Of a DNA stretch of 64,000 bases, positions 2,865 through 49,997 are shown piece after piece (within the stretch, counting starts at the first letter, position 1; every line of letters begins with the position of its first letter). Source of the stretch: an uncultured Caulobacterales bacterium (GTDB taxonomy: Bacteria; Pseudomonadota; Alphaproteobacteria; Caulobacterales; CAYPOX01). The notes below the pieces were generated by a model. It saw only the letters and a program-made list of their open reading frames with translations, ran no database searches and was not told the origin of the DNA. The DNA lies in NCBI GenBank assembly GCA_964412525.1, contig CAYPOX010000001.1, forward strand, positions 11,356 to 75,355, written 5' to 3'. The translations under genes were made by a program, and so were the position numbers.

Positions 2865-3596
2865 CTAAGCGGCTGTCGCGTCGGCGATATCGTCTGACGC
2901 GCCGTCGGACGTGGCCTCAACCGGCTCATCGAGCTTGTACCCGCGACCATATACGGTCTCAATATACTGGGCGCCCGCGGTGGCATTGGCGATCTTTTTG
3001 CGAAGCTTGCAGATGTAAACGTCAATTACCTTGTCGAAGGGTTGCGAATCCATCATGCCGTAAACGGCTTCATACACGGAATTCTTCGACACGACCTTGC
3101 CCGCTTGCAACGCCAAATGGGTGAAAATGGCGTGCTCGCGGTGAGAGAGTTTCAGGCGCCGGCCATCCACCTCCGGATCGCGACCGTCGAAATAGACCGT
3201 GAGGCGACCGATCCGCAGACTGGCCGTCACATGGCCGTGGCCGCGGCGGCGAATGGCCTGGATCCGGGCGACCGCTTCGCCAGGATTGATCGGTTTGACC
3301 AAAGCGTCGTCAGCCCCGGAACCCAGAAGCCGGATCACGTCGTCCGAAGACCGAAGATCCAAAAGAGCCAAAATCGGACCACGGAACTCCTCGCCGCGCA
3401 GTCGCTCCACGAATCGCGATTGATCCGCCACGCCGCCGACCAGCACCGCGCATTCTCCACCCGCTTCGCTCTGGCGCGACAACACCGCATCAATGTCCGC
3501 CTCGGACAGCGGCTCGCAACGAACCTTGCTCCGGGCGAGGGCCTTAGAAAGCGCGTCAAAGACGCTGTCTCGCGGTTCGGCCAATAAAACACGCAT
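2865..3596 (-). CDS. OmpR-family, CtrA/FtcR-like winged-helix regulator with a degenerate receiver domain
   Basis: The C-terminus KVIDVYICKLRKKI...IETVYGRGYKL resembles the CtrA DNA-binding domain as I recall it. The N-terminus MRVLLAEPRDS and the strand CAVLVGGVADQ lack the usual acidic pair and phospho-Asp. The gene is divergent from flgI. Confidence 0.75.
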   Translation of the reverse strand: MRVLLAEPRDSVFDALSKALARSKVRCEPLSEADIDAVLSRQSEAGGECAVLVGGVADQSRFVERLRGEEFRGPILALLDLRSSDDVIRLLGSGADDALVKPINPGEAVARIQAIRRRGHGHVTASLRIGRLTVYFDGRDPEVDGRRLKLSHREHAIFTHLALQAGKVVSKNSVYEAVYGMMDSQPFDKVIDVYICKLRKKIANATAGAQYIETVYGRGYKLDEPVEATSDGASDDIADATAA

Positions 3597-3744: not shown

Positions 3745-3769
3745 GCAAAACGCAAGCTTGAGGGTTTTC

Positions 3770-4888
3770 ATGGCGCGACACCTATTGGTCCTCCTCGCAT
3801 TCGCGGCCTTCTGCTTCGGGTCGCAAGCGCAGGCGCAGGCGCGCATCAAGGATTTGGTCTCGGTCGAAGGCGTCCGCGGCAACATCCTTGTGGGCTACGG
3901 TCTCGTTGTGGGCTTGAATGGCACGGGCGACCGTTTGAACAACGTCCAGTTCACCGAGGAAAGCATTCAATCCGCGTTGGATCGACTCGGCGTCACCTAT
4001 CGCGACAACGTCCAGCTCCGGACCCGGAACGCGGCCGCGGTCATGGTCACCGCCACGCTGCCGCCTTTCGCGCGCTCCGGCGAAACCATCGACGTCAATG
4101 TCGGCGCGCTTGGCGACGCGCGCGATCTTCGTGGCGGGCAACTTTTGGCGACGTCGTTGGTCGGGGCCAATCAACAGACCTACGCCGTCGCCCAGGGCAG
4201 CCTCGTCACGGGCGCTTTCGCGGCCCAGGGCCAAGGAGCCAGCGTCACCCAGGGCGTACCGACCGCCGGCCGAATCCCGAACGGCGCCATCATAGAACGT
4301 GAGGTGGATTTCGAGTTGGACGAACTGCCGATCATTCAGTTGAGCCTGCGGAACGCTGATTTCACAACCGCCGTTCGGATTGAGGACGCCATCAATGCGC
4401 GGATGGGGCGCGGGGTGGCCGTGGCGATTGATCCGGGAACCGTCGAAACCGTCGTGCCGGACGATTATCGCCGCCGTGGCGGCGCTGTCCGGTTTCTGGC
4501 TCAAGTCGAGAACATCGAAGTTCTGCCGGACGGCGTGGCGCGCGTGGTGATTGACGAGCGCACGGGCACGATCGTGATCGGCGAGGCCGTGCGCGTGAGC
4601 CGCGTGGCGGTGGCGCAGGGCAACATTACAATCCAGGTGACGGAGACGCCGCAAGTTTCTCAACCGGGCCCCTTCGCTCAGCAGGGTCAGACGGTTGTCG
4701 TTCCGCGCACGGACGTGCAAGTCGATGAGGGCGAGGACGGACGGTTCCAAATCATCGGCGACGCGGTCACGCTTCAGGAATTGATCAACGGCTTGAACGC
4801 CTTGGGCGTCGGGCCGCGGGACATCATTTCGATCCTTGACGCCGTGAAAAGTTCCGGCGCGCTGCACGCGGAGCTCGTGATTCAATGA
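3770..4888 (+). CDS. flgI: Flagellar P-ring protein FlgI
   Basis: A signal peptide (ARHLLVLLAFAAFCFGSQAQA) is followed by RIKDLVSVEGVRGNILVGYGLVVGLNGTGD. GAGGG lies 5 nt before the ATG at 3770. Confidence 0.95.
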   Translation: MARHLLVLLAFAAFCFGSQAQAQARIKDLVSVEGVRGNILVGYGLVVGLNGTGDRLNNVQFTEESIQSALDRLGVTYRDNVQLRTRNAAAVMVTATLPPFARSGETIDVNVGALGDARDLRGGQLLATSLVGANQQTYAVAQGSLVTGAFAAQGQGASVTQGVPTAGRIPNGAIIEREVDFELDELPIIQLSLRNADFTTAVRIEDAINARMGRGVAVAIDPGTVETVVPDDYRRRGGAVRFLAQVENIEVLPDGVARVVIDERTGTIVIGEAVRVSRVAVAQGNITIQVTETPQVSQPGPFAQQGQTVVVPRTDVQVDEGEDGRFQIIGDAVTLQELINGLNALGVGPRDIISILDAVKSSGALHAELVIQ

Positions 4889-5247
4889 ATGACGCCGCAC
4901 TTCCGTCTGAAGCGGTTCGTCTTTTGGATGTGGCGACACGCATCGACCGGCTCGAGAGAATGAAACGGCTCGAGGCGTTGAACGGACCCGATCGCGCCCA
5001 AGCGGCCCGCGACGCCGCGCGCGACTTTGAAGCGATGTTCGCCAATCAGATGTTGCAAGGCATGTTCCATGGCGTGGGCGAGGACGCCCTGTTCGGCGGC
5101 GGGCACGCTGCGGAGATCTGGAAAGACTTCTTGATCGAGCAGTACGCCGAAGCGATCGCCGAACGCGAAGCGTTCGGCGTGGCGGACATGATTTATGAGG
5201 GTGCGTTGTCGGCCTATGCGCAGACGGCGAACGGCGCAGTGGAGTGA
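4885..5247 (+). CDS. Rod-binding protein (FlgJ N-terminal-domain-like / CheL-like)
   Basis: It carries ARDFEAMFANQMLQGMF and FGGGHAAEIWKDFLIEQYAEAIA, which fit the rod-binding domain. Its start overlaps the flgI stop as ATGA. Confidence 0.75.
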   Translation: MNDAALPSEAVRLLDVATRIDRLERMKRLEALNGPDRAQAARDAARDFEAMFANQMLQGMFHGVGEDALFGGGHAAEIWKDFLIEQYAEAIAEREAFGVADMIYEGALSAYAQTANGAVE

Positions 5248-5696
5248 TGGCTTCGGACAGCTCGCCGCTCTATGATGACGGCGAAGCGGCCTCCGCTTTC
5301 GTCGAACTGCTGGACGCGCTCGACGCGCTCAGCGAAGCCTTCGAACTCGAAAACGCGACCATACCAACCGCGGACGTCGCAGCGCTCCAAGAGGCTGCGG
5401 CGTTGAAACAGGAACGCGTCTTTGCGCTGGAGCGCGCACGGGAGGCTTTCCACGCGATGTCGGAGCGCTTGTCCGAAGACGAACGCGGATTGATTGCGGC
5501 GAGAGCGCGCCGCCTCCAAGACGTGCTGGAACGCAATGTTCGCCTGACCCGCGGCGCGCAACGGGCCGTGACCTCGATCACCTCCGTCATCCGGCGCGCG
5601 ATCCAGCGAGACGAATCGGCCGGCCTGTACAGCCGAGACGGCGAGACGGAGCCGCCCGTCGGCGGCGGCGCGCCGAGAGTCGACGCCAAGCTTTGA
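5244..5696 (+). CDS. Hypothetical helical protein, possibly a FlgN-like flagellar export chaperone
   Basis: It is 150 aa, acidic and helical (FVELLDALDALSEAFELENATI...LKQERVFALERAREAF). It overlaps the upstream gene by 4 nt. Assignment is by position and composition only. Confidence 0.4.
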   Translation: MMASDSSPLYDDGEAASAFVELLDALDALSEAFELENATIPTADVAALQEAAALKQERVFALERAREAFHAMSERLSEDERGLIAARARRLQDVLERNVRLTRGAQRAVTSITSVIRRAIQRDESAGLYSRDGETEPPVGGGAPRVDAKL

Positions 5697-5733: not shown

Positions 5734-7293
5734 ATGGGCCAGTGGACAGGCGATTACGTCGTCGACATCGATTATTCAGCGAGCATGTATGAGTGGGTCA
5801 CGCCGCTTCGCATGCATACCCAGTTTCGGCTGGCATACTCCCAGAACGCGCCGGACCCGTTTCGGCCTGGACTTCAAATCGCGGACCTCGCATGCGGGAT
5901 GGGCGTCCACGCATGCATGCTCGCCGCGTGCTATCCGAACGCGCGCGTCTTCGCGTGCGACATCAACCCGCTCCATGTGGCCAACGCGATCGAACTCGCA
6001 CGGGACGCGGAGCTGACCAATATTGATATTGAGCTCGCAAGTTTCGCGGAGATCGCCAATAGAAAAGAAGATTTCCAGAGGCGTTTTGATTATACTTTTT
6101 TGCACGGAGTCTACTCATGGGTCAAAGATAGCATTCGAGAAGATCTTCACAATTTTATAGATTTTGCAATAGCGCCTGGAGGTCTTGTCTATCTTAATTA
6201 TGAATGCTTGCCTGGCGCCGCGGAAGTTGGCGTTTTGAACCGACTATACTCAGAGATCGTGGCCCAGTCGCGTATCGACGCTGGGGCTGATTTGGGCCAA
6301 GACAACGACTTGCTCGATCAATTGGTGGAAACTGGGGCCGGTTACTTTAACAGACTGAAAACCTCAGGCTCGTTCAACGGTTTTAAGAAGGCGACGCCAA
6401 ACTACAGGCTTCATGCGTTTGCGTCGGGCGAAGGGCTGCCGCTTTACTCCTCAAGCGTTATCCGACGGTTCGCGGCGAACGGACTGGCCTATATCGGCGG
6501 CGCAGAGCCCTTGCATGTTCTTGGAGAGTCTTACATCCCGCCGGCGCTCTCTGGCTTGTTGAAGCGGATCCGCGATCGCGCGGCGCGTGAAACCTTCTAC
6601 GACGCTATGACCAATTATGGGGGACGCGGCGACATTTTTGCATTGGGTTCGCGGCCGCTGAACAAAAACCGGATTCGTACGTGGTTCGGCCAACAACGAT
6701 TTATGGCGCGTATGGATACGATCCCCGACCCGCTCACGATCCGGTCGCCATTTGGTGCGCTGAACGTTCAAAACGAACTGTCCGTCACCCTCCATCGAAT
6801 TCTCCGAAACGGTCCGGCGCGGGTCCATGATTTGGCCCAAGCGCTCAACCTGTCCACCAACGATCCGAAACTTCTCAATGCGGTTCGCGTCGGCTATGCG
6901 TCTGGAATCATTGAGGCGGCGGCGGACGAGAAACATGTCGACGCCGCGACGGAGCCGGTCCGTCGGTTCAACCGCGTGCTGGCGGATCGTGTGGCGAACG
7001 GCCATCCGGTGTCCAGTCTCGCAAGCCCTGTGACTGCGACGGCGTCGCCGATGACGCTCGGCGACGTGACAGCGATCGTTTTGGACAGCAGTCACACGCC
7101 ATTGTCGGACAAAACGGTGACGCACGGCTTGCGCCAATTGATTAAGCGGGGCGGCCGAGATCCCGACCAGGTCTTTGACGGCTTTTCTGAAATGGTGCGC
7201 AACAGCGTGGAACGCTATGTGACCGACGGCCATGCGACGCGCTTGACGCGCCTCGGAGTCCTCGCGCCAAATTCGATTTCAACGAACGGATGA
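5734..7293 (+). CDS. Class I SAM-dependent methyltransferase with a long C-terminal (regulatory-type) domain
   Basis: It has the SAM motif I IADLACGMGVHACMLAACYPNARVFACDINP, then FDYTFLHGVYSWV and GGLVYLNYE. The remaining 300-odd residues are uncharacterised. It is the last gene before flagellin. Confidence 0.7.
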   Translation: MGQWTGDYVVDIDYSASMYEWVTPLRMHTQFRLAYSQNAPDPFRPGLQIADLACGMGVHACMLAACYPNARVFACDINPLHVANAIELARDAELTNIDIELASFAEIANRKEDFQRRFDYTFLHGVYSWVKDSIREDLHNFIDFAIAPGGLVYLNYECLPGAAEVGVLNRLYSEIVAQSRIDAGADLGQDNDLLDQLVETGAGYFNRLKTSGSFNGFKKATPNYRLHAFASGEGLPLYSSSVIRRFAANGLAYIGGAEPLHVLGESYIPPALSGLLKRIRDRAARETFYDAMTNYGGRGDIFALGSRPLNKNRIRTWFGQQRFMARMDTIPDPLTIRSPFGALNVQNELSVTLHRILRNGPARVHDLAQALNLSTNDPKLLNAVRVGYASGIIEAAADEKHVDAATEPVRRFNRVLADRVANGHPVSSLASPVTATASPMTLGDVTAIVLDSSHTPLSDKTVTHGLRQLIKRGGRDPDQVFDGFSEMVRNSVERYVTDGHATRLTRLGVLAPNSISTNG

Positions 7294-7299
7294 AAGAAT

Positions 7300-7311
7300 C
7301 GCTTTTACGCG
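7300..7311 (+). promoter_or_regulatory. 12-mer CGCTTTTACGCG upstream of the flagellin gene; shared with the fliI/flgB intergenic region
   Basis: The identical 12-mer occurs as its reverse complement at 11828-11839. The TTTTACG core also appears in the 14-bp repeats at 3616 and 3665. Confidence 0.45.
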
Positions 7312-7422
7312 GTTTTAAGTCGACCATGAGACCTTCCGCCAGCGTTTTCCAGGGTAAGCTTGGGGACGCGCGGCGTCAGAAGGCGCTTGTTCAACTCACC
7401 CAGAATCAAGGGAGCACGACAC

Positions 7423-8982
7423 ATGTCGAGCATCATCACCAACGAAAATGCGATCGTCGCGCTGCAAACGCTGCGCTCGGTCACGGCCAACCTTCAAGAG
7501 ACGCAAGACCGCATCTCCACGGGCCTGGAAGTTCGCCAAGCTTCTGACAACCCGGCCTTCTTCCTGGTCGCGAACCAGGTCGGCGGCGACCTCGCGGTCA
7601 TCACCGGCATCCGGGACAACCTGGAGCTGACGATCCAAGCGACGGCGACGGCGCAAAATGCGGCCAGCGACATCTTTGACGAGTTGGAAGCGATCCAGAC
7701 GACGAACGTGACCGCCGACTCCGGCGTTGCGCGCGACGAACTGGCCTTCTCGCTGCAAAACACGGTGTCCTTCATCGAAGGCGTCATCAACACGGCCAAC
7801 TTCGCGGGCAACAACCTGCTGGCGGGCTCCGACACGTTCACGGTCACCACGGCCGTCACGCGCGTCGGCGGCGAGTTCACGCTGTCCACCTTCACGTTGC
7901 AGCGTCAAAACCTCGACGACATCTCCATCGGCGGCGACCAGTTCCTGTCCGCCGGTGCGGGCTCGGACTTTGACTTCATGGTCGGCGCCAATGACGGCAC
8001 GCGTCAAGCGGACGAGCAGTTCTCTGCTCTGTCGCGTGCGTTCCGCGGCGAAGGCTTGGCCACGCAGTTCGACCGCAACAACAATGGCGCGGTTGAATTT
8101 ACGTCCGCTGGCGTCGCCAATGGCGGCGACTTCTTCACCTCCGCGGACGGCATCGCCGGCCTGATGGCGGGCGATCTTGCCTTTGAAGGCTCCCGCGCCG
8201 ATGCGGCGTTCCTTCTTTCGGTCGGCATTCAAGCGACCTTCATCGCGGGCGGTGCGACGGATGAAACGGGCGAAACGATCGACATCGTTTCCTTCGCTCG
8301 TTCCGGTTTGTCGGATCTCAACACACGCACGAATGGTCAAGGCGTCGCCACGTCTGAAGAGTTTGCGTCCGCTCTGGTCGACGCGAACGTCTTCACGACG
8401 GAAGTGTTTGATGCGGCGAACCGTGAAATCCTGAACGCCGACCAAGAGACGCTGTCCTTCCTGGAAATGGCGGGCTTCACGATGGCGGTCCTGACGGGCA
8501 CGACCATCACGCTCGTCTCGGAAGAGTCGCTGTTGACGCCGGCCACGATCGACTTCGCGGGTCAGACGGCGACGGCGTTTGAAACGGCCGCGCAAACCGT
8601 TCTCGAGAACTTCGTTCTCGACAGCGGCCGTTTGCTTGAGCAGGCGGACGCGTCCGGCTTCTCTGGCGTCCTGCGTCAGATCGACATCACGGCCGAAACG
8701 GGCAATGTCGGCTCCGCGATCACGATCTCGGCCAGCCTCGTTGACCGCGCCAACTTGGTCGCGTCGAATGTCGGCACGCTGCAATCCACGCTCGAAGCGC
8801 GTCAGAACTTCCTGTCTGACCTTGCTGACTCGCTCGACGTCGGCATCGCGGCGCTGATCGAAGCCAACCTGGACGAAGAGTCCACCCGTCTGCAGGCCCA
8901 GCAGGTCCAGCAGCAGTTGGCCATTCAGTCGCTCACGATCGCCAACGCTCAGCCGCAGGTTCTCCTGCAGCTGTTCGCGTAA
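7423..8982 (+). CDS. fliC: Flagellin (519 aa)
   Basis: AAGGGAG lies about 8 nt before the ATG at 7423. The N-terminus is MSSIITNENAIVALQTLRSVTANLQETQDRISTGL and the C-terminus is LDEESTRLQAQQVQQQLAIQSLTIANAQPQVLLQLF. The track's start at 7360 is rejected. Confidence 0.95.
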   Translation: MSSIITNENAIVALQTLRSVTANLQETQDRISTGLEVRQASDNPAFFLVANQVGGDLAVITGIRDNLELTIQATATAQNAASDIFDELEAIQTTNVTADSGVARDELAFSLQNTVSFIEGVINTANFAGNNLLAGSDTFTVTTAVTRVGGEFTLSTFTLQRQNLDDISIGGDQFLSAGAGSDFDFMVGANDGTRQADEQFSALSRAFRGEGLATQFDRNNNGAVEFTSAGVANGGDFFTSADGIAGLMAGDLAFEGSRADAAFLLSVGIQATFIAGGATDETGETIDIVSFARSGLSDLNTRTNGQGVATSEEFASALVDANVFTTEVFDAANREILNADQETLSFLEMAGFTMAVLTGTTITLVSEESLLTPATIDFAGQTATAFETAAQTVLENFVLDSGRLLEQADASGFSGVLRQIDITAETGNVGSAITISASLVDRANLVASNVGTLQSTLEARQNFLSDLADSLDVGIAALIEANLDEESTRLQAQQVQQQLAIQSLTIANAQPQVLLQLFA

Positions 8983-9081: not shown

Positions 9082-9471
9082 ATGAGTGAAGCTTACAGCG
9101 TCGATGCGTATCGCCAGACCATCCGTGAGACCGAAGAACCGCGTAAGGCGGAACGTCGCGTCTTCTCCACCGTCACTGGACAGTTGGAGCGGTACAAGGA
9201 TGCCTTCGCAGGCCGCGATCTTGAAGCGCAAGGCCATCTTCGCGAGGCTTTGGCGAAAAACCGCACGCTCTGGAGCTTGTTGCTCAACGATGTGACCCAC
9301 AATGAGAACGCTCTGCCAAATGATTTGAAGGCGCGGATCATCTCGATCGCCATGTTCGTCGATCGGCACACGGTGAACGTGCTCAAAGGCGAAGGCGACG
9401 TTCACGTTCTCGTCGACGTCAACCGTTCCGTGATGGACGGATTGAAGGCCGCGCAGCCCTCTGAAGACTGA
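9082..9471 (+). CDS. flaF: Flagellar biosynthesis regulator FlaF
   Basis: The sequence AYRQTIRETEEPRKAERRVFSTVTGQL...NRTLWSLLLNDV is typical of FlaF. flbT is adjacent. Confidence 0.85.
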   Translation: MSEAYSVDAYRQTIRETEEPRKAERRVFSTVTGQLERYKDAFAGRDLEAQGHLREALAKNRTLWSLLLNDVTHNENALPNDLKARIISIAMFVDRHTVNVLKGEGDVHVLVDVNRSVMDGLKAAQPSED

Positions 9472-9495
9472 TTTCAAAGCCACCCGCGCGCCGGC

Positions 9496-9954
9496 ATGGG
9501 ACTGAAAATTCGGCTGCGGCCGCATGAAAAAGTCATCATCAACGGATGCGTGGTCGAAAACGGCAATCGCCGCGTCACCCTCAACGTCTACAATTACGCC
9601 CAGATCTTGCGTAGCCGTGACATCATGGCGGAGGCGGACGCCACCACCCCGCTCCGGCAATGCTATTTTCTCCTTCAACTAGTTCTCATTGATCCACGGA
9701 CCCATGACCGATGTTTGAAATGGGTCAGCGGCGTCATCTCACGCGCCTATGGCCTGTTGCGTGATGAGAGCCTGAGACGCCGATTGATCGCGACGATCGA
9801 ACGGGCTCGAGCGCATGATTACTACAAGGCGTTGACCGAACTCAAAGCCGTGATACGCTTTGAAGATGACGAAGGAGTGATTCCGGCTGGCGGCCTGGAA
9901 GCGTTTGCAAGCGTGCTTCAGTCTCTTGGTTCGCCGGCGTTAAATGAGCGGTAG
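9496..9954 (+). CDS. flbT: Flagellin synthesis repressor FlbT
   Basis: The N-terminus MGLKIRLRPHEKVIINGCVVENGNRRVTLNV is the FlbT signature. Confidence 0.85.
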   Translation: MGLKIRLRPHEKVIINGCVVENGNRRVTLNVYNYAQILRSRDIMAEADATTPLRQCYFLLQLVLIDPRTHDRCLKWVSGVISRAYGLLRDESLRRRLIATIERARAHDYYKALTELKAVIRFEDDEGVIPAGGLEAFASVLQSLGSPALNER

Positions 9955-10294
9955 AACCATGGAACCAATGTTGGGCGTAAATTCTGAGGTCACCACCCCA
10001 CAACTGTCGCCAGGCGATCGGTCTGTGGCCACCGGCGCGACGTCTTCGGAACCTTCCACCCTTGCAGGCGCCGGTGTGGTCGCCTTTGACGAGGAAATCA
10101 CAGCGGTCGATGCGGAGCTTGATCGGCCCGATCGGTTCAATCTTCAATTCGAACCGGGCTCGATCCGCATATTTACGGAAGTCTTGGATCGTGACGGCGA
10201 CATCGTCACCCGTATTCCGCCCGCATCGCTGCGGACGGCGCTCGCCGCATTCGGACTGAGCGACGGGCCGTTCAGCGTTCAATCCTTCGTTTAG
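9944..10294 (+). CDS. flaG: FlaG-like flagellar protein
   Basis: The C-terminal segment FNLQFEPGSIRIFTEVLDRDGDIVTRIPP fits the FlaG family pattern (..D..tGevirqIP). It overlaps the flbT end by 11 nt. Confidence 0.6.
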   Translation: MSGRTMEPMLGVNSEVTTPQLSPGDRSVATGATSSEPSTLAGAGVVAFDEEITAVDAELDRPDRFNLQFEPGSIRIFTEVLDRDGDIVTRIPPASLRTALAAFGLSDGPFSVQSFV

Positions 10295-11757
10295 ACCGAC
10301 GCGCCGCCGACCGGCTGGCGGATATCGATCGCTGAAGGGGACGCATCGCCGCCCTGGTCGCCGAAGACGGATTGCACGTCCGCAGTTTCATCAACCGCGC
10401 GTGGCGAGGCTTGAGCAACGCCGTCCGACCCGACGATCTGCGCAAGACGGCGAAACGCCTCGGCCGTGTCGCCGCGTTCCTCCCGGCGTTGGTCGATCAA
10501 TTGCTCCAATCCATCAAAAATTTCGATCGCCCGGTCCGTCTCCGGGTCCGATCCGCGTTTGTACGCGCCGATCCGGATGATCTCTTGCATGTTTTCGTAC
10601 AACGCTTGCGCGCGAATGGCTTTTTCCCGCGCCGCGTTCTCGGCGGGCGAATGGCATTGGGGCAAAGAGCGAGAGATGCTCTTGAGAATGTCGATGGCTG
10701 GAAAGCGACCGCGCTCGGCGATCGACCGACTCATCGCCACATGCCCGTCCAGAATGCCGCGCACCGCGTCCGAAATCGGTTCGTTCATGTCGTCGCCTTC
10801 GACCAAAACGGTGAACACGCCCGTGATGTCGCCTTCATCACCAAACCCCGGACCGGCCCGTTCCAAAAGCCGCGGCAATTCGGAGAAGACGGTCGGGGGA
10901 TAGCCCTTGGCGGTCGGCGGTTCGCCAGCGGTCAATCCAATTTCACGCTGCGCCATCGCGAAGCGCGTGATCGAGTCGATCAGGCATAGGACATGCTTGC
11001 CCAAATGCCGCTGATGCTCGGCAAGGGCAAGGGTGAGGTACGCCGCTTGGCGGCGCATGAGCGGCGGCTGATCGCCCGTGGCCACGACGACGATCGCGCG
11101 CGCGAGCCCTTCTTCACCCAAATCGTCCTGCAAAAACTCTTGAACCTCGCGACCGCGTTCGCCGATGAGGCCGATGATGATCACGTCGGCGTCCGCGTAG
11201 CGCGCGAACATGGAGAGCATCGTCGACTTGCCCACGCCCGAGCCCGAGAACACGCCCATGCGCTGGCCGCGACAGATCGGTGAAAAAAGATCAACGCCCC
11301 GAACGCCGGAACTCATACGAGGGCCGACGGGTCGGCGGTCATAGGCGTTGGGAGGCCGCGATTTCAGCGGCGTCAGATGTTCGCCCTCGGGAAGCGGGCC
11401 TTTGCCGTCGATCGGGCGGCCGAGGCCGTCAATCACGCGGCCGATCCAACGCTCGGACGACCGAATCGTGAAGCTCGTGCCGTCGTAAATCACCGGGCTG
11501 CCGACCGAGACGCCTTCGATCTCGTCCAGGGCCATGAGCAATGTGCGTCCGTTGCGCACGCCGACGGCCTCGCAGAGCACGTGGGTGCCGTCCCGCCGGA
11601 CCGCATAACACTTGTCGCCCATGGCCAGGCGACGCTCCAGCCCGCGGGCCTCAATCGTCATGCCCATGAAGCCGGCCACTTCGCCGCGCCAGCGCGGTCC
11701 TGGCACGGCGGCGACTTCGGCCGCCGCCTCTTCGAAAATGCGGTCCATCGCTGACAT
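10291..11757 (-). CDS. fliI: Flagellum-specific ATPase FliI (488 aa)
   Basis: It has Walker A GVFSGSGVGKST and Walker B DVIIIGLIGERGREV. The start is taken at MSAMDRIF (ATG at 11757). The 804-aa track ORF is an upstream run-on across flgB and flgC. Confidence 0.93.
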   Translation of the reverse strand: MSAMDRIFEEAAAEVAAVPGPRWRGEVAGFMGMTIEARGLERRLAMGDKCYAVRRDGTHVLCEAVGVRNGRTLLMALDEIEGVSVGSPVIYDGTSFTIRSSERWIGRVIDGLGRPIDGKGPLPEGEHLTPLKSRPPNAYDRRPVGPRMSSGVRGVDLFSPICRGQRMGVFSGSGVGKSTMLSMFARYADADVIIIGLIGERGREVQEFLQDDLGEEGLARAIVVVATGDQPPLMRRQAAYLTLALAEHQRHLGKHVLCLIDSITRFAMAQREIGLTAGEPPTAKGYPPTVFSELPRLLERAGPGFGDEGDITGVFTVLVEGDDMNEPISDAVRGILDGHVAMSRSIAERGRFPAIDILKSISRSLPQCHSPAENAAREKAIRAQALYENMQEIIRIGAYKRGSDPETDRAIEIFDGLEQLIDQRREERGDTAEAFRRLAQIVGSDGVAQASPRAVDETADVQSVFGDQGGDASPSAIDIRQPVGGASV

Positions 11758-26457: not shown

Positions 26458-28161
26458 TTACGCGCCGCGGCGGCCTAGGCGCACCAATTCATCCCGAAGG
26501 CGCGGAAACACGGCGTCCCAATCGCCCAGTCGGTCGGGATGCAAAACGGTATTCTTCGTGCCGTAGAATGGGATGGAATCGGCTTTACCGAGCATTGTCC
26601 AAATCTTAAGTGCGCTGACCCAAATTGTCGGCGTCCCGACGGCCGCGCTCAATGCGCCGGCGGCGGTGTTGGCGCTCGCGACCAAGTCTAGCGACGCGCA
26701 CAGCGCCGCATTGTTATCGATATCGTTCTTCAGATCGATCTCGCTCGAAAAATCGACGATATGAAATCCGCGTTCGCGCGCGGCCACCAATTCCGCCCGG
26801 CAATCATCATATTGAAGACTGACAAATGTCGCGTCGATGTCTTTGAGAGCGTCCGCCCATGTCCCAATGGACGCATAGTGGAAGTTTCGTTTGACGCTTC
26901 GCATGCCGCTTCGCCAACAGATCCCCACATAGGGTCCGGGCCCAACCTCTTTCAGCCGCGCGGACCAACGCTCCTTTTGGGCGGCGTCGACGACCAAACG
27001 GCGGGGTTCCGCGGGGAATGCGTCAACGCTCGGGCGCAATAAGGGTAGAAACGCACCAATGAAGGCGTGGACGTCTGGGGGCGGCAGCGTTCCATCCGGG
27101 TCGTCCGGCGACAACAGAACCACCGTGCCGCGTTTCGCGACGTGACGTGGACGTACGGCGACGTCTGGAAAGGTTCGCGCAAAAAGTGACGCCAGCCGAG
27201 GTTCGCAAATCAACACCAAGGACTTACATTTCGTTTTCAGGTCTTCGATAATCGGATAAAATAATATTTCGTCTCCAAGACCTTGCTCGGTGTAAACGTA
27301 AAGCGTCTTGTCGGAGAGATCTGTTTCGACCGTCCACTCGTCGCCAGCATCGACCAATTCCATGCCAAAAGAATAGCTGCGATTCAAACGAGAATGCAGA
27401 TATGCGGGCCACCCGCGTTCCAAATCGCCAAATCCAAGAAAACATAGGCCGGCGGTGAAGCAGACGTTATGCATGTCGTCTATGGACATCCCGCCAAGTT
27501 TCATGGCCTCGACGGCGTGAGTCGACGCGTCCTTAAATTGCGCAAGCCGAAACAGGCCATCCGCATACAGGTAACGAAAAGGACCGGCGGTCGGGTGCTC
27601 CGCCATCGCCTCTTGGGATGCGGCGAGACCCGTTTCGAGATCGCCAAGATAGTAATTGATGACGATATTCATGCGCTTCGCCACCACATTCTGCGGATGG
27701 CTTTCACGCACTTCACGAATGAGGTCTCGGGCAGCCGCATATTGATGGGCTTCGACCAGCGCGGTCGCGTAGTTGAGGCGATGTTCCGCCTTGTCCGGGT
27801 CAAGTGCGATCGATTGACGAAATGGGCGATGCATTTCGTCGTATTTTTTACATTCCTGAAAAAAGGTTCCGTACAAACCAAAGGCGTACGCCTTGTCCGG
27901 CGCCAGTTCGATCAATCTCTCAAAGCTGGTCCGGGCTTCTTTCGCCCGGCCTGTGTAAAAAAATGAGTTCGCAAGCAGCGCCACAAGGTCCGCATCGTGG
28001 GCGTACTTCACCAAATATGTTGTGAGGAACTTGCTGACGTCTTCAAGGCGGTTGTCCTCATAAGCGTCGACGGCCTCCGCGTAAGCCCTATGGTACTCCT
28101 TGTCAGGATGCGGATTGACGCCGGAAAAATATCTCTCTTTGAGGAGTTCTGCGGCGCGCAT
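26458..28161 (-). CDS. TPR-repeat protein with a C-terminal GT9-like (GT-B) glycosyltransferase domain
   Basis: The N-terminal half holds TPR-type helices. The C-terminal half has YTEQGLGDEILFYPIIEDLKTKCKSLVLICEPRLASLFARTFPDV and ...LVASANTAAGALSAAVGTPT, which resemble heptosyltransferase-family motifs. The gene is visibly lower in GC than its flanks. Confidence 0.6.
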   Translation of the reverse strand: MRAAELLKERYFSGVNPHPDKEYHRAYAEAVDAYEDNRLEDVSKFLTTYLVKYAHDADLVALLANSFFYTGRAKEARTSFERLIELAPDKAYAFGLYGTFFQECKKYDEMHRPFRQSIALDPDKAEHRLNYATALVEAHQYAAARDLIREVRESHPQNVVAKRMNIVINYYLGDLETGLAASQEAMAEHPTAGPFRYLYADGLFRLAQFKDASTHAVEAMKLGGMSIDDMHNVCFTAGLCFLGFGDLERGWPAYLHSRLNRSYSFGMELVDAGDEWTVETDLSDKTLYVYTEQGLGDEILFYPIIEDLKTKCKSLVLICEPRLASLFARTFPDVAVRPRHVAKRGTVVLLSPDDPDGTLPPPDVHAFIGAFLPLLRPSVDAFPAEPRRLVVDAAQKERWSARLKEVGPGPYVGICWRSGMRSVKRNFHYASIGTWADALKDIDATFVSLQYDDCRAELVAARERGFHIVDFSSEIDLKNDIDNNAALCASLDLVASANTAAGALSAAVGTPTIWVSALKIWTMLGKADSIPFYGTKNTVLHPDRLGDWDAVFPRLRDELVRLGRRGA

Positions 28162-32292: not shown

Positions 32293-32951
32293 GCTGAGCG
32301 CTCCACCCGGATCGTTCGTCCAATATTCTCAAGCGTCATCCGATAACCGCCCATAAAATTTCGTTTGATGGTCACATCGAACGGAGCGTCCCCCGGATAG
32401 ACCTTGTCGCCCCCATTCTGCCGCCAAACCTGGTCGTTATCTAGGGTGACGACCACATGTCCGTAGGCGTCTCGTCGATAGGCGGTCACGGTGGCCGTCA
32501 AGCGATCCGCGCGTTCCGATTCTTCGGTGCGGCGCCGGTTTTCGCGAATATCTTCCGCGCCAAATTCGTCCTCGCGATCCGTGTCCGCTTCCGAGTCGTC
32601 GGCTTTGGTTTCCGCCTCGTCAGATCTCGCCTCTGATTCGTCGGGTCCGCTCGCCGCTTCAGCGCCATCGCTCGGCGGCGGAGAGGCGTTCGCGGCAATG
32701 CGCGGCGGTTGGCCGAGCGGCGCCGACCAAGTCGCGTCTTCTCCCATGGCGTCGGCGACCGCGCGCGCGGCGGCGTCGAAACAGGCGAGTCGCGGCCCGG
32801 CGGTCTGGAGCGATCCGCATGCGACAAGGTCGTCCAACAGCGCTTTCGGCACGGATGCGCGGCGCGCGTCTTGGGCGTTGACGGAAAACGACACGCCAGC
32901 TGCGAATAAAATAAAAACAAATTTTGAGAAAATTTTAGACAGAAATTGCAC
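32289..32951 (-). CDS. Hypothetical secreted protein with an acidic low-complexity centre
   Basis: GGAGG lies 4 nt before the GTG at 32951. The signal peptide is FLSKIFSKFVFILFAAGVSFSVNAQ. The middle is DE-rich (SDEAETKADDSEADTDREDEFGAED). The 632-aa track ORF is an upstream run-on antisense to the next gene. Confidence 0.5.
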   Translation of the reverse strand: MQFLSKIFSKFVFILFAAGVSFSVNAQDARRASVPKALLDDLVACGSLQTAGPRLACFDAAARAVADAMGEDATWSAPLGQPPRIAANASPPPSDGAEAASGPDESEARSDEAETKADDSEADTDREDEFGAEDIRENRRRTEESERADRLTATVTAYRRDAYGHVVVTLDNDQVWRQNGGDKVYPGDAPFDVTIKRNFMGGYRMTLENIGRTIRVERSA

Positions 32952-32976
32952 GCGACCTCCCCGAACTTCACAATCG

Positions 32977-33044
32977 CTTGATTTGCAAGCCTTTCGCATA
33001 ATATACAAGAGGTTAAGGAACTTGTGCGGCGCCTGCAAATCAAG
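32977..33044. promoter_or_regulatory. 11-bp perfect inverted repeat CTTGATTTGCA / TGCAAATCAAG flanking an AT-rich divergent promoter region
   Basis: The arms are at 32977-32987 and 33034-33044, separated by 46 bp. Confidence 0.4.
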
Positions 33045-34715: not shown

Positions 34716-34871
34716 CGTCGCGCTCCGTGCGGGCGGAAATTGCGGCTTTTTCGCAACACCAAATTCGTTTCGCGTTCGTCAAAAAATTGTGACGGATTGA
34801 CGGCGATTTTGCGGCGAACCTAAGCTTGGCCCCGATAAGTCGTCTTGCGCTCGAAAAAGACGGCGAGTCGT

Positions 34872-34966
34872 GAAGGGGTCACATCGCCGCCAACCCATGC
34901 GTCACCAGGTGGACGCGTGGGTTGTCATGCGCCCCTTCGTGCAAATGGTCATTGAAGGGGGTCACA
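34872..34966 (+). promoter_or_regulatory. Structured leader of the TonB-dependent receptor gene, with a possible SD-sequestering switch
   Basis: There is a 12-bp hairpin at 34892-34903/34912-34923. CCCCTTC (34932-34938) is complementary to both GAAGGGG copies, at 34872-34878 and at 34954-34960. The second copy is the Shine-Dalgarno sequence for the ATG at 34969. Confidence 0.4.
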
Positions 34967-34968
34967 AC

Positions 34969-37900
34969 ATGACGCAACAACAAACGTTTCGCCGAGCTTT
35001 GCTGCGCACGACGGCTTTGGCCGGCGTCGCGGCGGTCGGCGTGGGGGCTGGCTTCGCGCAGCCCGCGGAAGGCGACGGCGACGTCGAACAAATCGTCGTC
35101 ACGGGCACGCGCCTGACGACCAACCCAAATCTCGGCTCTCCGAGCCCCGTTCTCGGCATCGATTCGGAAGAGATCGCCCTGCGCGGCACCGTCCGGGTCG
35201 AGGATTTGACGAACATCCTGCCGCAAGTCTTCGCCGGCCAGGCGACGGAAGTCTCCAACGGCGCCACCGGCACGTCGACATTGAACCTGCGCGGTCTGGG
35301 CGCAACGCGGACCTTGGTCCTGATCGACGGCCGCCGCATGCCCTATGGTTCGTCGCAGTCGTCACCCGCCAACGTTGACATGGTGCCGGCGCGGTTGATT
35401 GAGCGGATTGACATTGTGACCGGCGGCGCCTCCGCTGTGTACGGGTCGGACGCCGTTGGCGGCGTCGCCAACTTCATTTTGAAAAACGACTTCGAAGGCG
35501 TCGAATTCAACTTCCAGGGCGGCTTCAATACGGACACGAGCGGCGACGACTTCCTTGGGAACTTGCTGGACGTCAGCAACGTTCCGCAGCCGGATGGCGG
35601 GTTCGACGGTCGGGAACTGTTCGGCTCGATCTTGCTTGGCGCCAACTCGCCGGACGGTCGCGGCAACGTCACGCTGTTTGCGAGCTATCAAAATCTGAAC
35701 GCGATCACCCAAGACAATCGGGATTTCAGCGCCTGTTCGCTGGCTCCGGGTTCGGGAGAGTTCAGCGTCGAGGGTCTGCAGTGCCAAGGCTCCGCAAATT
35801 TCCGCCTGTTCGGCGGACCGGGCGGCTTCTTCTTCCAGGAAGAGGACGGCACGATCGTTCCGTTTCAGGGCGGACCTTTCCAATCGTACAATTTCGGCCC
35901 GCTCAACTACTTCCAACGTCCGACGGAGCGTTTCAACATCTATGCACGTTCGCGGTATGAGTTGACGGACGATATCGAGGTCTATCTCGACGCAAGCTTC
36001 TTCAACAACAACACCGACGCCCAGATCGCCGAAACGGCGTCCTTCGGCATCGGCGCCTACAGCATCAACTGCGACAACCCGCTCATCCAGGGTAACGGAA
36101 CCGGACCGGACGGCACTGGCGAATCATTCGCCAACATTTTCGGTTGTAATGTTCCGGACGCCGACGGAGTTCTGCCCCTTGAGGTGAGCGGCATCACGGC
36201 CTCGCACAGGAACGTGGAAGGCGGCCCGCGGAACTCCAACATCGACGTGTCGACCTGGCGCTTCGTCGGCGGTTTCCGCGGCACCTTGTTCGACAATGTC
36301 GACTGGGAACTGTTCGGCCAATACTCTCAGTTGATCGACACCAATATTGGCACGAATGATTTCGTGATCGACAACCTGCAAGACGCGTTTTTTGCGGTTG
36401 ATGACGGCGCCGGCAATGTTGTGTGCCGCTCGGGCAATTCCGGCTGCGTGCCCTACAACATCTTCCAGCGCGGTCCGAACGGCGAATCGCTTGTGACATC
36501 TGATCAGACCGACTTCATTCAAGGTGTCGGCATCACGGTCGGTGAAGTGAAGCAGCTCGTGTTCGGCGGCACTGCGCAGTCCGACCTCGGCGAGTACGGG
36601 ATCAAATCGCCCTTTGCGGAATCCGGCATCGGCTTCTTGGCCGGCTGGGAGTATCGCGAAGACGTCCTGGAATCCAATCCGGACGAGATCACGCAGGTGC
36701 CGGGCGGTGGTTTCACCGGCGTCGGCGGTGCAAACCTTCCGATTGAAGGTGAAATTCGTGTCACGGAGTTTTTCTTCGAAACGCAAATTCCGCTCGTCGA
36801 AGATCAATTCTTGGTTGAAGAATTGGCCATCGGCGGCGCATACCGCTATTCGGACTACACGACGGACGGCAACGGCCTAGAAAGCACCTTCACCACCGAC
36901 ACGTATTACGCTTATGCGACTTGGCGGCCGACTGAGGATGTCTCCTTCCGAGGACAATTCCAGCGTTCAGTCCGCGCGCCGAACGTCATTGGTCTGTTCA
37001 CAGCGCAAGACTTTGGCCTGACGGGCTTGTCTCCGGGCGACAATGGTTTCTTTGATCCATGCGCAGGGCCGACGCCGGCCGCAACGTTGGAGCAATGCGC
37101 GGGTTCTGGGGTGACGGCCGATCAGTACGGCAACATTCTGGATGCAGTCTCCGGCCAGGCAGGCACCATCACCGGCGGCAATCCGGAGCTGCAACCCGAA
37201 AGCTCCGATACGATCACCTTCGGCGCGATCTTCACGCCACGTTGGATTGACGGGTTGTCGATCTCGATCGACTATTTCGACATTGAGATCGAGGACGCCA
37301 TCGCAGGCGGCGTGCCCGCCCAAACGATCCTCGACGAGTGTGTCTTTGGCGGCAACGATCAGTTCTGCGGCTTCATCACGCGGGACGCGGGCCAATCACT
37401 CAACTCGGGCACCGGCACTGGGTTCCTCCAAACGAATGTCAATATTGCAACCCTGGCGACTGACGGCTTGGACTTCCAGGTGATCTACAATCTGGATCTG
37501 GCTCAAGTTGGATTGAGCGACTTTGGCAACATCAATTTCGATTACGCGTCCACATGGCTCCGTTCCTTGGACACCACGCCTTTCCCGGGTGGAGACGTCA
37601 TTGAATGTGCGGGGCTTTATGCGGGCTCGTGCGGCACGCCAAACCCGACCTATCGTCACCGCTTCCTTGCGACTTGGGCGACGCCCTGGCAGGTCAACGT
37701 CTCGGCCACGTGGCGTTACTTCAGCGGCACCGACTTTGACGGCAATGCCCCGACGGCGACAGACGAGCGCCTGGAAACCGTCAACTACCTTGACTTGTCG
37801 ATCGATTACCAAGTGACGGAAAATCTGAACATTCGCGGTGGTGCTTTGAACCTGCTGGGCGCGGCCCCGCCGATCTCCACGGCGACCTCGCCGCCGCTGG

Positions 37901-37974
37901 GCAACGGCAACGTGTACCCGTCGGTTTATGATATCAGCCGCTTCGTGTTCTTCGGCATTCGCGTCGACATCTGA
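34969..37974 (+). CDS. TonB-dependent outer-membrane receptor
   Basis: It has a signal peptide and a plug domain (IVVTGTRL, LIDGRRMPYG, ERIDIVTGGASAVYGSDAVGGVANFI), followed by a long beta-barrel region. Confidence 0.92.
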   Translation: MTQQQTFRRALLRTTALAGVAAVGVGAGFAQPAEGDGDVEQIVVTGTRLTTNPNLGSPSPVLGIDSEEIALRGTVRVEDLTNILPQVFAGQATEVSNGATGTSTLNLRGLGATRTLVLIDGRRMPYGSSQSSPANVDMVPARLIERIDIVTGGASAVYGSDAVGGVANFILKNDFEGVEFNFQGGFNTDTSGDDFLGNLLDVSNVPQPDGGFDGRELFGSILLGANSPDGRGNVTLFASYQNLNAITQDNRDFSACSLAPGSGEFSVEGLQCQGSANFRLFGGPGGFFFQEEDGTIVPFQGGPFQSYNFGPLNYFQRPTERFNIYARSRYELTDDIEVYLDASFFNNNTDAQIAETASFGIGAYSINCDNPLIQGNGTGPDGTGESFANIFGCNVPDADGVLPLEVSGITASHRNVEGGPRNSNIDVSTWRFVGGFRGTLFDNVDWELFGQYSQLIDTNIGTNDFVIDNLQDAFFAVDDGAGNVVCRSGNSGCVPYNIFQRGPNGESLVTSDQTDFIQGVGITVGEVKQLVFGGTAQSDLGEYGIKSPFAESGIGFLAGWEYREDVLESNPDEITQVPGGGFTGVGGANLPIEGEIRVTEFFFETQIPLVEDQFLVEELAIGGAYRYSDYTTDGNGLESTFTTDTYYAYATWRPTEDVSFRGQFQRSVRAPNVIGLFTAQDFGLTGLSPGDNGFFDPCAGPTPAATLEQCAGSGVTADQYGNILDAVSGQAGTITGGNPELQPESSDTITFGAIFTPRWIDGLSISIDYFDIEIEDAIAGGVPAQTILDECVFGGNDQFCGFITRDAGQSLNSGTGTGFLQTNVNIATLATDGLDFQVIYNLDLAQVGLSDFGNINFDYASTWLRSLDTTPFPGGDVIECAGLYAGSCGTPNPTYRHRFLATWATPWQVNVSATWRYFSGTDFDGNAPTATDERLETVNYLDLSIDYQVTENLNIRGGALNLLGAAPPISTATSPPLGNGNVYPSVYDISRFVFFGIRVDI

Positions 37975-38060: not shown

Positions 38061-38093
38061 CCGCCGGCTTCTTCGGAAGTCGGCGGTTTTCTT
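38061..38093 (+). terminator. Rho-independent terminator of the receptor gene
   Basis: The stem is CCGCCGGCTTC / GAAGTCGGCGG (11 bp, one G-U pair) with a TTCG tetraloop, followed by TTTTCTT. Confidence 0.8.
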
Positions 38094-39234
38094 ATGGGTA
38101 GCTGGAGATGAGTTGGAACGTTCGCGCCAGGAAGGCGCGATCTCGATCGTTCAGCTCGGGGCGCCAAATGTCGAACAACAGCACGATGCGCGGCTCGTCG
38201 CTCATATTCTCCGCCTCGTGCTCAATGCTGTCGTCGAACACCGTCAATTCGCCTCGACGCCAGACATGGCGCTGATTTCCGACGCGCAGGACGCAGGCCC
38301 CGGGAACGATAAGCGGCAAATGGCAAATCAACCGCGTATTGAGCATGCCGTGATGCGGATCGATTCGCGTTTTCGGTCGCAGCATCGAGAACAGAACAGA
38401 CGGGTTTTTACCCGGCACGGTGCAGAGCGGCACGTCCTCCAGCGCCGCCATGGCGTGCGGGCAGTGTTTGGCGACGGCCTCGTTCACCGTCCCGCTCTTG
38501 ATGAGATAGGCCGCGCTCCAATCGGTATTGTCCTGAAGATGGGATTCGCGCGTCTTTGGTCCGCTCTGGACGTGGAGATATGCCTGAAACCCGTCCTCCA
38601 GCGCCATCACCGCGCGCGCCTCTTCGGCAATGGCGTCGGTCTGCGCCTCCAAGGCCGAGGCCCAGGTGAACTCGGATCGGTCGTAAAATTGCCTTTGGGG
38701 TAGGCCTGGCCAAAAAAATTGCTCCGGCTCCTGGGCGTAGATCTTGCGGCGGCCGAAGAGAATGTCGAGCGCTTCGCTGGCGGCGCCGGGCCCGTCCGGC
38801 GCGACCTCGAAGCCTTCCTCTCCCAAAGCCTTTCGAAGAAACGCTTCATACCCAGCCATCAACTCGCGTCCAAGGCGATGCGCGCGTTCCAAATGGGCTT
38901 GTATGTGCGCCGGGCGACGGTCCGGCGGCGGCGCCACAGTGATTGCGGCGTTGAAGAAGGACGCCGCTTCCGCCTTGCGGCCGAGCTTGAGCGCCGCATC
39001 GCCGCGCATCACCAGTGCGAGGAAATTGCGCGGTTGGATCTCAAGGACTCGTTCGAGCTCCGCCACCTCACCCACATGGTCGCCCGTGTCGCGGCACGCG
39101 AAAGCAAGCCCCATGCGGATCGCGGGATCGTTCGGACGCTCCGTCGCTTCCTCAGACAACAGTTCAAACGCCGCGCGAGGGTTTCCGGCCTGCAGCGCTT
39201 CAAAGCCCTCCCGGGCCCGTTGGCTCATTTCCAT
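38092..39234 (-). CDS. TPR-containing aspartyl/asparaginyl beta-hydroxylase-family protein
   Basis: It has N-terminal TPR helices. The C-terminus IDPHHGMLNTRLICHLPLIVP...VFDDSIEHEAEN fits the 2-oxoglutarate/Fe(II) Asp/Asn hydroxylase fold. Confidence 0.75.
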   Translation of the reverse strand: MEMSQRAREGFEALQAGNPRAAFELLSEEATERPNDPAIRMGLAFACRDTGDHVGEVAELERVLEIQPRNFLALVMRGDAALKLGRKAEAASFFNAAITVAPPPDRRPAHIQAHLERAHRLGRELMAGYEAFLRKALGEEGFEVAPDGPGAASEALDILFGRRKIYAQEPEQFFWPGLPQRQFYDRSEFTWASALEAQTDAIAEEARAVMALEDGFQAYLHVQSGPKTRESHLQDNTDWSAAYLIKSGTVNEAVAKHCPHAMAALEDVPLCTVPGKNPSVLFSMLRPKTRIDPHHGMLNTRLICHLPLIVPGACVLRVGNQRHVWRRGELTVFDDSIEHEAENMSDEPRIVLLFDIWRPELNDRDRAFLARTFQLISSYP

Positions 39235-46380: not shown

Positions 46381-46482
46381 TCGACGTCTTTCCACGCCTT
46401 GAATTTCGACGTAAAGTTTTGCTGCGGTTGCCGGATGCGCGCGCGTGTTCGGCAAGCCCGAGATGCGAACACGGAGGGGCGC

Positions 46483-47142
46483 ATGTCGAACATCGCGGGC
46501 AAAGCCTATGCGATGAATGTATTGACCCCCGTCAAGCCATGGCGGACCGGGATCAACCGCTTGATCTTCATGGTGTCGCGCGCATGGCCGGCCACCCTTT
46601 ACGGCCTTCTCGGCCTTCGGCTGATCCATTTCGCGCGTTGGGTCATCATCAAGCGCGACGCCTGGCCCGATTTCGGCCAAGGGCGGGAGACGCTGCGCAA
46701 TGATTACGTGCTGTTCTGCTCCAATTTCAACGGCACATGGGACCAATATATCGACGCGTTTTCGGACGGGATCCCGAACGGCCTGAACCTGTTCTGGTAC
46801 TCCAGCACCAAATATCCGCAATCGATTCCGATCACGCCGTTCAAACGATACATCACCCACAACCAAATCGAGACCGACTATTACTACAACGCCACGCCCG
46901 GCGCGGCCCAACGGGGCGTCAAAAACGCCATCGCGGTGCGAGAGGGCCTGGCGGTTTTGGCGAAGGCGCACCGCACCGAGGAGCCCGAGGCGTTCGCCAA
47001 GACCTACGCGAAAGTCCTGACTCAACTGCAAAACAAGCTCGGACGTCAGGGTTTCGCGCCCGCAGCGAGCAACGCCACGCTGCGCGCCGAAGCCCTGACC
47101 CAATCCAAGATCGATGCTCGATGGAGCGGCGGCGATGCCTAA
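46483..47142 (+). CDS. Uncharacterised protein A (219 aa); paralogue of the N-terminal domain of the next gene
   Basis: GGAGGGG lies 3 nt before the ATG at 46483. Motifs are AYAMNVLTPV, IHFARWVII and YVLFCSNFNGTWDQYIDAF. I can name no family. Confidence 0.7.
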   Translation: MSNIAGKAYAMNVLTPVKPWRTGINRLIFMVSRAWPATLYGLLGLRLIHFARWVIIKRDAWPDFGQGRETLRNDYVLFCSNFNGTWDQYIDAFSDGIPNGLNLFWYSSTKYPQSIPITPFKRYITHNQIETDYYYNATPGAAQRGVKNAIAVREGLAVLAKAHRTEEPEAFAKTYAKVLTQLQNKLGRQGFAPAASNATLRAEALTQSKIDARWSGGDA

Positions 47143-49962: not shown

Positions 49963-49997
49963 ACGATGCGTCTGTCCGGCGCGATAGAGGAGACGTC

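Follow-up and report, generated by a model that had tools for sequence, protein, structure and literature searches.

Here we describe a gene in a 64,000-nt stretch of DNA from an uncultured Caulobacterales bacterium (assembly GCA_964412525.1, contig CAYPOX010000001.1; the whole stretch is referred to as the window), where an open reading frame (ORF) of 519 aa at 5734..7293 (+ strand, ATG start) stands between a flgN-like gene and flagellin and encodes an S-adenosylmethionine (SAM or AdoMet)-dependent protein methyltransferase of the PKMT family. We tentatively propose, with a probability of about 0.4, that this is an accessory PKMT-fold methyltransferase that was recruited to the flagellar operon and modifies an export substrate, with an acceptor that is likely not a lysine of the adjacent flagellin. 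Sequence comparisons lend support to this proposal through the linkage to flagellin within the clade of the window protein, purifying selection and ties of the wider family to secreted structures.

Membership of the PKMT family was apparent from both sequence and predicted structure. The Rossmann-type SAM-binding core (aa 45-151; 5866..6186, +) was matched by Pfam Methyltransf_25/31 over aa 45-150 and carries the SAM motif DLACGMGVHA...VFACDINP, in which DLACGMG is motif I, confirming that the enzyme belongs to class I. Matches to NCBIfam were weak class I methyltransferase matches and nothing stronger; all NCBIfam and Pfam matches were class I with no FliB-type family among them, in agreement with the earlier remark that the protein does not resemble FliB. 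The regulatory domain named in the original prediction was found as PF10119 (MethyTransf_Reg) at aa 224-302 (6403..6639, +; 38.3 bits, cut-off 25.5), a region that corresponds to the dimerization domain and the returning Rossmann strands in the PKMT1 domain map (PMC11784438). Sequence matches in the PDB were to Rickettsia PKMT2 (5doo, E 7e-18) and PKMT1 (5dnk, E 8e-17) over aa 11-312. All relatives of solved structure are protein-lysine methyltransferases that act at many positions on surface proteins. An AlphaFold model made from 48 family sequences (predicted local distance difference test score 87.7, predicted template modelling (TM) score 0.89) was compared by Foldseek with the PDB, and ranks 1-8 were all PKMT1/2 chains (527-561 columns, TM 0.64-0.68, E ~1e-20), followed by the Mycobacterium tuberculosis lysine methyltransferase Rv2067c. 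The protein is predicted from this model to be a full-length PKMT relative with the complete four-domain fold. Given the full-length match to PKMT1/2 and the PKMT1 map (PMC11784438), the more than 300 residues previously thought to be of unknown function (~300 beyond the SAM-binding domain) can be assigned to the dimerization, middle and C-terminal domains of this fold.

The SAM site is intact, with G55, G57, D76 and H124 all retained. In the phmmer alignment D76 and H124 pair with Asp102 and His146 of PKMT1, which are the AdoMet hydrogen-bonding residues of that enzyme (PMC11784438), and both columns are 98-100% conserved in the family. An exhaustive phmmer search returned 5578 cluster representatives at E<=1e-3, of which 275 remained at E<=1e-30; the best 150 matches were nearly all 500-520 aa in length and, outside the cluster of the query itself, none of these 150 exceeded 35% identity.

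The adjoining flagellin (7423..8982, +; 519 aa, Pfam Flagellin_N and Flagellin_C) does not contain a single lysine in its 519 residues, among which there are 20 arginines, 34 glutamines and 31 asparagines. Lysine is similarly absent from the partial FlgK (0/277) and scarce in FlgL (1/633) and FlgI (2/376), as compared to 2-5% in the cytoplasmic proteins of the window. A FliB-like +14 Da lysine series on this flagellin is therefore impossible, and this part of the original prediction is excluded. The closest flagellins form a Parvularcula- and Iodidimonas-like group that is lysine-poor (0-10 lysines per 413-623 residues), with four of the 46 members having none. We considered and rejected the notion that loss of lysine from flagellin was an effect of the methyltransferase, because relatives that lack the gene also have lysine-free or lysine-poor flagellins. 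Acidic residues make up ~13% of the window flagellin. Exported and surface proteins of the window are nearly lysine-free in general (62-2802, 7423-8982 and 34870-37974), including a TonB-dependent receptor with 0.4% lysine.

Residues that are otherwise conserved throughout the family have been replaced in the clade of the window protein. An alignment of 241 family sequences contained 67 columns with at least 80% conservation; the window clade deviates at 18-19 of these columns, as compared to a family mean of 5.9 (standard deviation 4.0, 95th percentile 12). Column 228 is alanine in the window clade and is glutamate in 235, and aspartate in three, of the 238 other sequences, such that this clade is the sole group among the 241 sequences without an acidic residue at this position. 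Other changes in the clade are N157E, W162A, W234G, F297G and R299G; E228A, W234G and F297G fall within the PF10119 region, while N157 is equivalent to Asn179 of PKMT1, the final residue of beta5. The near-invariant motifs of the family outside the SAM site (SYN..PGW after beta5, HE/HD, and FR at beta7) are not kept in the window protein. Sequence alignments show that N157, W162, E/D228 and F297 are retained in PKMT1/2, and they are also retained in the flagellin-linked Geobacteraceae enzymes and Hrp-linked enzymes described below. The replaced residues are otherwise conserved and are located where strands of the Rossmann sheet end, which makes it plausible that they shape the substrate pocket, and hence plausible that an altered acceptor or substrate accompanies these changes. 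The absence of lysine from flagellin and FlgK and its near absence from FlgL, combined with the replacement of four residues, makes a lysine side chain of this flagellin a very unlikely acceptor. The acceptor would instead be another nucleophile, such as the N-terminal amine, an arginine or an amide. We regard as improbable the fully specified form of this idea, in which a PKMT-fold enzyme has switched acceptor to the N-terminal amine, Arg, Gln or Asn of the lysine-free flagellin or of FlgK/FlgL.

The genomic position of the gene is as had been described from the ORF list and is now confirmed with Pfam. A run of flgI-flgJ-flgN-methyltransferase is opened by flgI, encoding the P-ring protein (3758..4888, +; Pfam FlgI E 4e-132), which overlaps by 4 nt with a gene for a FlgJ-like rod-binding protein (4885..5247, +; Pfam Rod-binding E 8.5e-12) that matches the N-terminal part of FlgJ in NCBIfam and is without a muramidase domain. 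A FlgN-like export chaperone is encoded next (5244..5696, +; Pfam FlgN 36.4 bits, cut-off 30.5), with a gap of 37 nt on the same strand between its stop (5696) and the methyltransferase start, and 129 nt separate the end of the methyltransferase from the flagellin ATG at 7423. Ribosome-binding sites precede both the methyltransferase (GAGGGG) and flagellin (AGGGAG) starts. With a gap of 37 nt and no terminator-like site, the methyltransferase is probably co-transcribed with flgI-flgJ-flgN. The protein has no visible N-terminal hydrophobic signal sequence, and methylation of a flagellar export substrate, most plausibly flagellin, would probably occur in the cytoplasm before export.

Close relatives of the gene are rare. 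These consist of only two orthologues, with 97% and 76% identity, on two 1698-nt Logan contigs; no close orthologue was found in 185,579 species genomes or in JGI metagenomes, and searching for exact copies of the flagellin leader that they share gave no match. The 128 nt downstream of the 76% orthologue (L006, 1571-1698) align almost base for base with the flagellin leader of the window, which means that in both lineages the methyltransferase is paired with flagellin. Comparison with this orthologue gave a ratio of nonsynonymous to synonymous substitution rates (dN/dS) of 0.13 at a dS of 1.26, with values of <0.2 in every segment, indicating that the gene has been maintained under purifying selection. 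More distant relatives have the locus without the gene. In L092 (FlgI 63% and flagellin 47% identical) the order is flgK, flgL, regulator, flgI, flgJ, flgN, flagellin, flaF, flbT, and flgN is separated by 183 nt from a lysine-free 623-aa flagellin with no methyltransferase between them; the gene is likewise missing at the equivalent position in Iodidimonas muriae (L093), in a 74% FlgI relative (L010) and in a 63% relative (L009). The best named matches to FlgI were in the Azospirillaceae (62-63%). Because these relatives have the same gene order without the methyltransferase, the whole gene is a lineage-specific insertion. It was probably gained as an accessory gene by a single, rare lineage of the Alphaproteobacteria, in the interval from flgN to the flagellin promoter. 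Its G+C content at third codon positions (GC3) is 0.65, as compared to 0.70-0.83 for other confirmed flagellar genes and 0.63 for a gene for a tetratricopeptide repeat (TPR) protein at the far end of the cluster. In L009 (1654-7446) the region between flagellin and flgI contains two TPR-GT41 (OGT-like) genes, a gene for a TPR protein and a small Methyltransf_11 gene, and these are candidates for a different set of flagellin modifiers in a related flagellar locus.

We also examined the genomic contexts of the wider family using a sample of 80 family loci from named genomes, scanned with an alignment of 14 sequences that was anchored on HGVYSWV. Most members of the family lie away from flagellar genes. 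Flagellin-linked members were found in the Geobacteraceae (L053, L059 and L090), where the genes downstream of a methyltransferase of the family, on the same strand, encode in order a 2224-aa TPR and GT9-like protein, a 271-aa flagellin, FlbT and FlaF; further methyltransferases and a TPR-GT41 protein lie upstream, forming a glycosylation island. The flagellins of these loci carry 9-11 lysines among their 271-272 residues. Other members are associated with secretion systems. The family gene is divergent from the gene for the Hrp type III secretin HrcC in Paracidovorax cattleyae (L056, 7611-11317), and likewise divergent from an Hrp type III secretin gene in a metagenomic locus (L003, 2337-5943), with HrpB1, HrpB2, HrcJ and HrcN of the core hrp cluster as neighbours. 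In a further Paracidovorax locus (L052), tblastn matched the type III ATPase and ring protein, and neither was matched in the Paracidovorax loci L054, L070 and L083. Fifteen of the 80 loci, from Azospirillum, Rhodospirillaceae and Acidoferrum (L018, L020, L030, L032, L034, L036, L044, L045, L049, L064, L067, L075, L078, L084 and L085), have the family gene, at about 10001-11300 in most, within type VI secretion clusters with conserved neighbours in the order TssC, TssE, ImpE, TssF, TssG, methyltransferase, DotU/TssL; in L084 it starts directly after tssG. In L008, which is among the closest non-orthologues, the gene adjoins a gene for an RTX/Ig-like secreted protein, and some family loci have no evident tie to secreted structures. 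Apparent matches to FliI in Leisingera were rejected as flagellar FliI: at 27-30% identity, and with two matches side by side in each locus, they resemble ATPases of the ATP-synthase type. The occurrence of family members in flagellin, type III and type VI loci therefore supports a role in modification of exported proteins, with the family embedded repeatedly in loci for secreted polymers. We find it rather unlikely that this extends to the whole family, with PKMT-family enzymes acting as general accessory modifiers of flagellar, type III and type VI secreted polymers.

Several observations weigh against the proposal that the window enzyme modifies a flagellar export substrate. Flagellin was present within 10 kb in just three of the 80 sampled family loci (those from the Geobacteraceae). 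The demonstrated activity of the PKMT family is on lysine and finds no target in flagellin and FlgK and next to none in FlgL. The combination of N157E and E228A could merely shift a carboxylate and thereby preserve amine methylation. Finally, L092, L093, L010 and L009 have the locus, with lysine-free or lysine-poor flagellins, and do without the gene, so the methyltransferase is dispensable for the flagellum. The claim of the original prediction that the enzyme modifies flagellin or another flagellar protein is consequently sustained only in part: the action of PKMT relatives on surface proteins and the linkage in the Geobacteraceae speak for it, while the lysine route does not.

The enzyme may alternatively be an ordinary lysine methyltransferase whose lysine-bearing substrate (e.g. 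another flagellin, a protein of the hook or rod, or an adhesin that is secreted or sits in the outer membrane) is encoded elsewhere, with the flagellar operon providing co-expression only. Every characterised PKMT relative methylates lysine, the SAM site of the window protein is intact and N157E could compensate for E228A. Substrates of the rickettsial PKMTs are not encoded beside the PKMT genes, and the visible genome consists of 64 kb with one flagellin gene. Despite these points, we consider this explanation doubtful because the four family-wide residues that are kept in PKMT1/2 are replaced in the window clade only, because the visible exported and surface proteins, the TonB-dependent receptor included, are almost devoid of lysine and because the flagellin group as a whole is lysine-poor.

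Another possibility is that the methyltransferase is a passenger, acquired horizontally into the space between flgN and the flagellin promoter and having no flagellar role. The absence of the gene from the equivalent position in the four relatives, a GC3 near the bottom of the range for the flagellar cluster, the mostly non-flagellar contexts of the family and the rarity of the clade (seen only in the source genome and on two short contigs from Logan) would all fit with this explanation. Such a passenger seems unlikely, however, given the purifying selection and continued presence of the flagellin leader downstream across a dS of ~1.26, the tight same-strand gap to flgN, the independent linkage to flagellin in the Geobacteraceae and the type III and type VI links elsewhere in the family.

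The TPR protein noted above (26458..28161, -; 567 aa) has Pfam matches to TPR repeats only (aa 57-190) and matches by tblastn the repeated TPR and GT9-like modules of the 2224-aa Geobacteraceae protein. It may be a flagellin glycosyltransferase and, judging from this similarity, a possible partner in flagellin modification. The arrangement in the window is not that of a glycosylation island, as the immediate neighbours of the methyltransferase are flgN and flagellin and the TPR candidate is 18 kb away; the Geobacteraceae relatives do have this arrangement. We give little credence to a non-side-chain target (e.g. a flagellin glycan) or to a non-catalytic SAM-binding protein acting as a regulatory or binding factor for flagellin: loss of the acidic residue at 228 and of the three conserved aromatics W162, W234 and F297 suggests a wider pocket, the TPR protein in the same flagellar cluster is akin to the Geobacteraceae TPR-glycosyltransferase modules and the Geobacteraceae family gene sits in a glycosylation island with other methyltransferases, but there are no sugar-biosynthesis genes near the methyltransferase in the window, the C-terminal 370 residues of the TPR protein contain no recognised glycosyltransferase domain, and purifying selection on the SAM-binding residues and the whole fold argues against decay.

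A further feature of the methyltransferase gene is a low-GC patch at 6010..6218 (+), with ~41% GC and a GC3 of ~0.36-0.39, that encodes aa 92-161 and so spans beta3 to beta5 of the catalytic core. The G+C counts reported previously, 23 of 60 at 6061-6120 and 22 of 60 at 6121-6180, are exact, and compare to a window mean of 62.9% GC. Of all 120-nt segments in the 64 kb, the one with the lowest GC lies within the patch, and segments of this length that are as GC-poor as that starting at 6061 make up just 0.07% of the total; this low GC content is well beyond chance. An equal dip is present in the 76% orthologue (GC 0.41, GC3 0.33-0.37) even though 61% of synonymous sites differ there, and the aligned segment in 80 other family genes has no dip (mean GC3 difference -0.02, maximum 0.17, as compared to 0.30 here). 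We rejected a foreign insertion as the source of the patch since the segment codes for beta3-beta5 and all members of the family are collinear across it, and rejected a family trait arising from amino-acid composition since the 80 other genes do not have the GC3 dip. A conserved embedded nucleotide element was unsupported, with identity to the orthologue being lowest in this region (0.67-0.73), and no promoter-like or terminator-like site and no Rfam match were detected within the patch. The comparison with other family genes indicates that the AT-richness is being maintained by something specific to the window clade. The foreign origin suggested in the original prediction does not hold for the patch as an insert and does hold for the whole gene, which is foreign to the locus in being absent from it in relatives. 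A second low-GC patch (27181-27331) lies in the TPR gene, and a third low-GC stretch (32869-33034) is intergenic, upstream of a gene for a family-5 solute-binding protein.

The intergenic region between methyltransferase and flagellin (7294..7422, +) is the putative promoter and leader of flagellin and is strongly conserved in L006. A 14-nt motif, GCGTCAGAAGGCGC, occurs at 7373-7386, ~40 nt before the flagellin start codon, and recurs in the region preceding flagellin (7659-7841) in L092, a distant relative. A TTTTAC-N-TTAA-like element is located further upstream of this motif in both the window and L092, and Rfam had no match for the intergenic region. These two sequences are candidates for a leader element under FlbT/FlaF control and a promoter. 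The flagellin synthesis regulators flaF and flbT are encoded downstream of flagellin (9082..9954, +; Pfam FlaF E 4.5e-29, FlbT E 1.1e-33). A gene for a CtrA-like response regulator (2865-3596, -) is divergent from flgI and has a weak receiver-domain match (18.4 bits, below the cut-off); a gene for such a regulator is in the equivalent position in L092 and L093, and the product is probably a local flagellar regulator.

The flagellar cluster as a whole extends from position 1 to ~28 kb of the window and also encodes FliI, FlgB/C, FliE, FliQ, FlhA, FliR, FlhB, FliM, FliL, FliF, a FliH-like protein, FliN, FliP and FliG, with one flagellin gene visible in the 64 kb. Elsewhere in the window, 38092-39234 (-) encodes TPR repeats fused to an aspartyl/asparaginyl beta-hydroxylase domain, beside a hybrid histidine kinase, and is a possible protein-modifying enzyme. 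A same-strand run at 46399-51374 (+) comprises two genes without Pfam matches (247 and 403 aa), a weak DyP-type peroxidase-like gene and a weak P450-like gene.

Few systems are known in which bacterial surface proteins are methylated at many lysines, namely FliB and Salmonella flagellin, PKMT1/2 and OmpB, and KmtA and AtaA. Our analysis provides a new link of the PKMT family with flagella and, via relatives, with type III and type VI loci; the literature that we searched contained no report tying this family to any of these loci, and named FliB as the enzyme of flagellin methylation or, in the case of Shewanella, a putative methyltransferase. The presence of an enzyme of a lysine-methylase family beside a lysine-free filament implies either that the chemistry of the family is wider than thought or that the gene neighbourhood is misleading. 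If a switch of acceptor has occurred, it would add a new type of modification to those of the flagellar filament, and the enzyme would be the first in the PKMT family that does not methylate lysine. These findings also serve as a warning that synteny alone is insufficient for annotating such genes as flagellin lysine methylases.

The known systems nearest to that of the window are those of PKMT1/2, KmtA and FliB, together with the uncharacterised Geobacteraceae loci. Salmonella FliB is similarly encoded directly upstream of flagellin and, as proposed here, modification would take place in the cytoplasm before export; there is, however, no sequence relationship, with FliB described as using a [4Fe-4S] cluster (PMC8598068) and the window enzyme being a class I Rossmann protein, and FliB needs surface lysines whereas the window flagellin has none. 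The Geobacteraceae loci share a same-strand family gene, two genes upstream of flagellin, with FlbT and FlaF downstream and a protein resembling the 567-aa TPR protein, but their enzymes are only 26-27% identical to the window protein, have the canonical pocket residues and accompany lysine-bearing flagellins. Characterised PKMT relatives methylate many lysines of secreted surface proteins, such as OmpB of Rickettsia and AtaA of Acinetobacter. KmtA of Acinetobacter sp. Tol 5, by which more than 130 lysines are methylated in the adhesin AtaA, a trimeric autotransporter (PMC11784438), can be likened to the window enzyme by its description as an environmental enzyme of the same broad outer-membrane ('OM') PKMT family, of similar length and acting on an exported, fibre-forming substrate; that substrate is lysine-rich (234 residues) while the window filament protein has no lysine. 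Finally, Rickettsia PKMT1/2 and the window protein share the full-length four-domain architecture (TM ~0.66), homology over aa 11-312, the conserved AdoMet-contacting Asp and His and an association with a secreted surface polymer, but have just ~16-25% identity and differ in the replacement of N157, W162, E/D228 and F297 in the window protein, in the location of its gene in a flagellar operon and in the absence of lysine from its candidate substrate.

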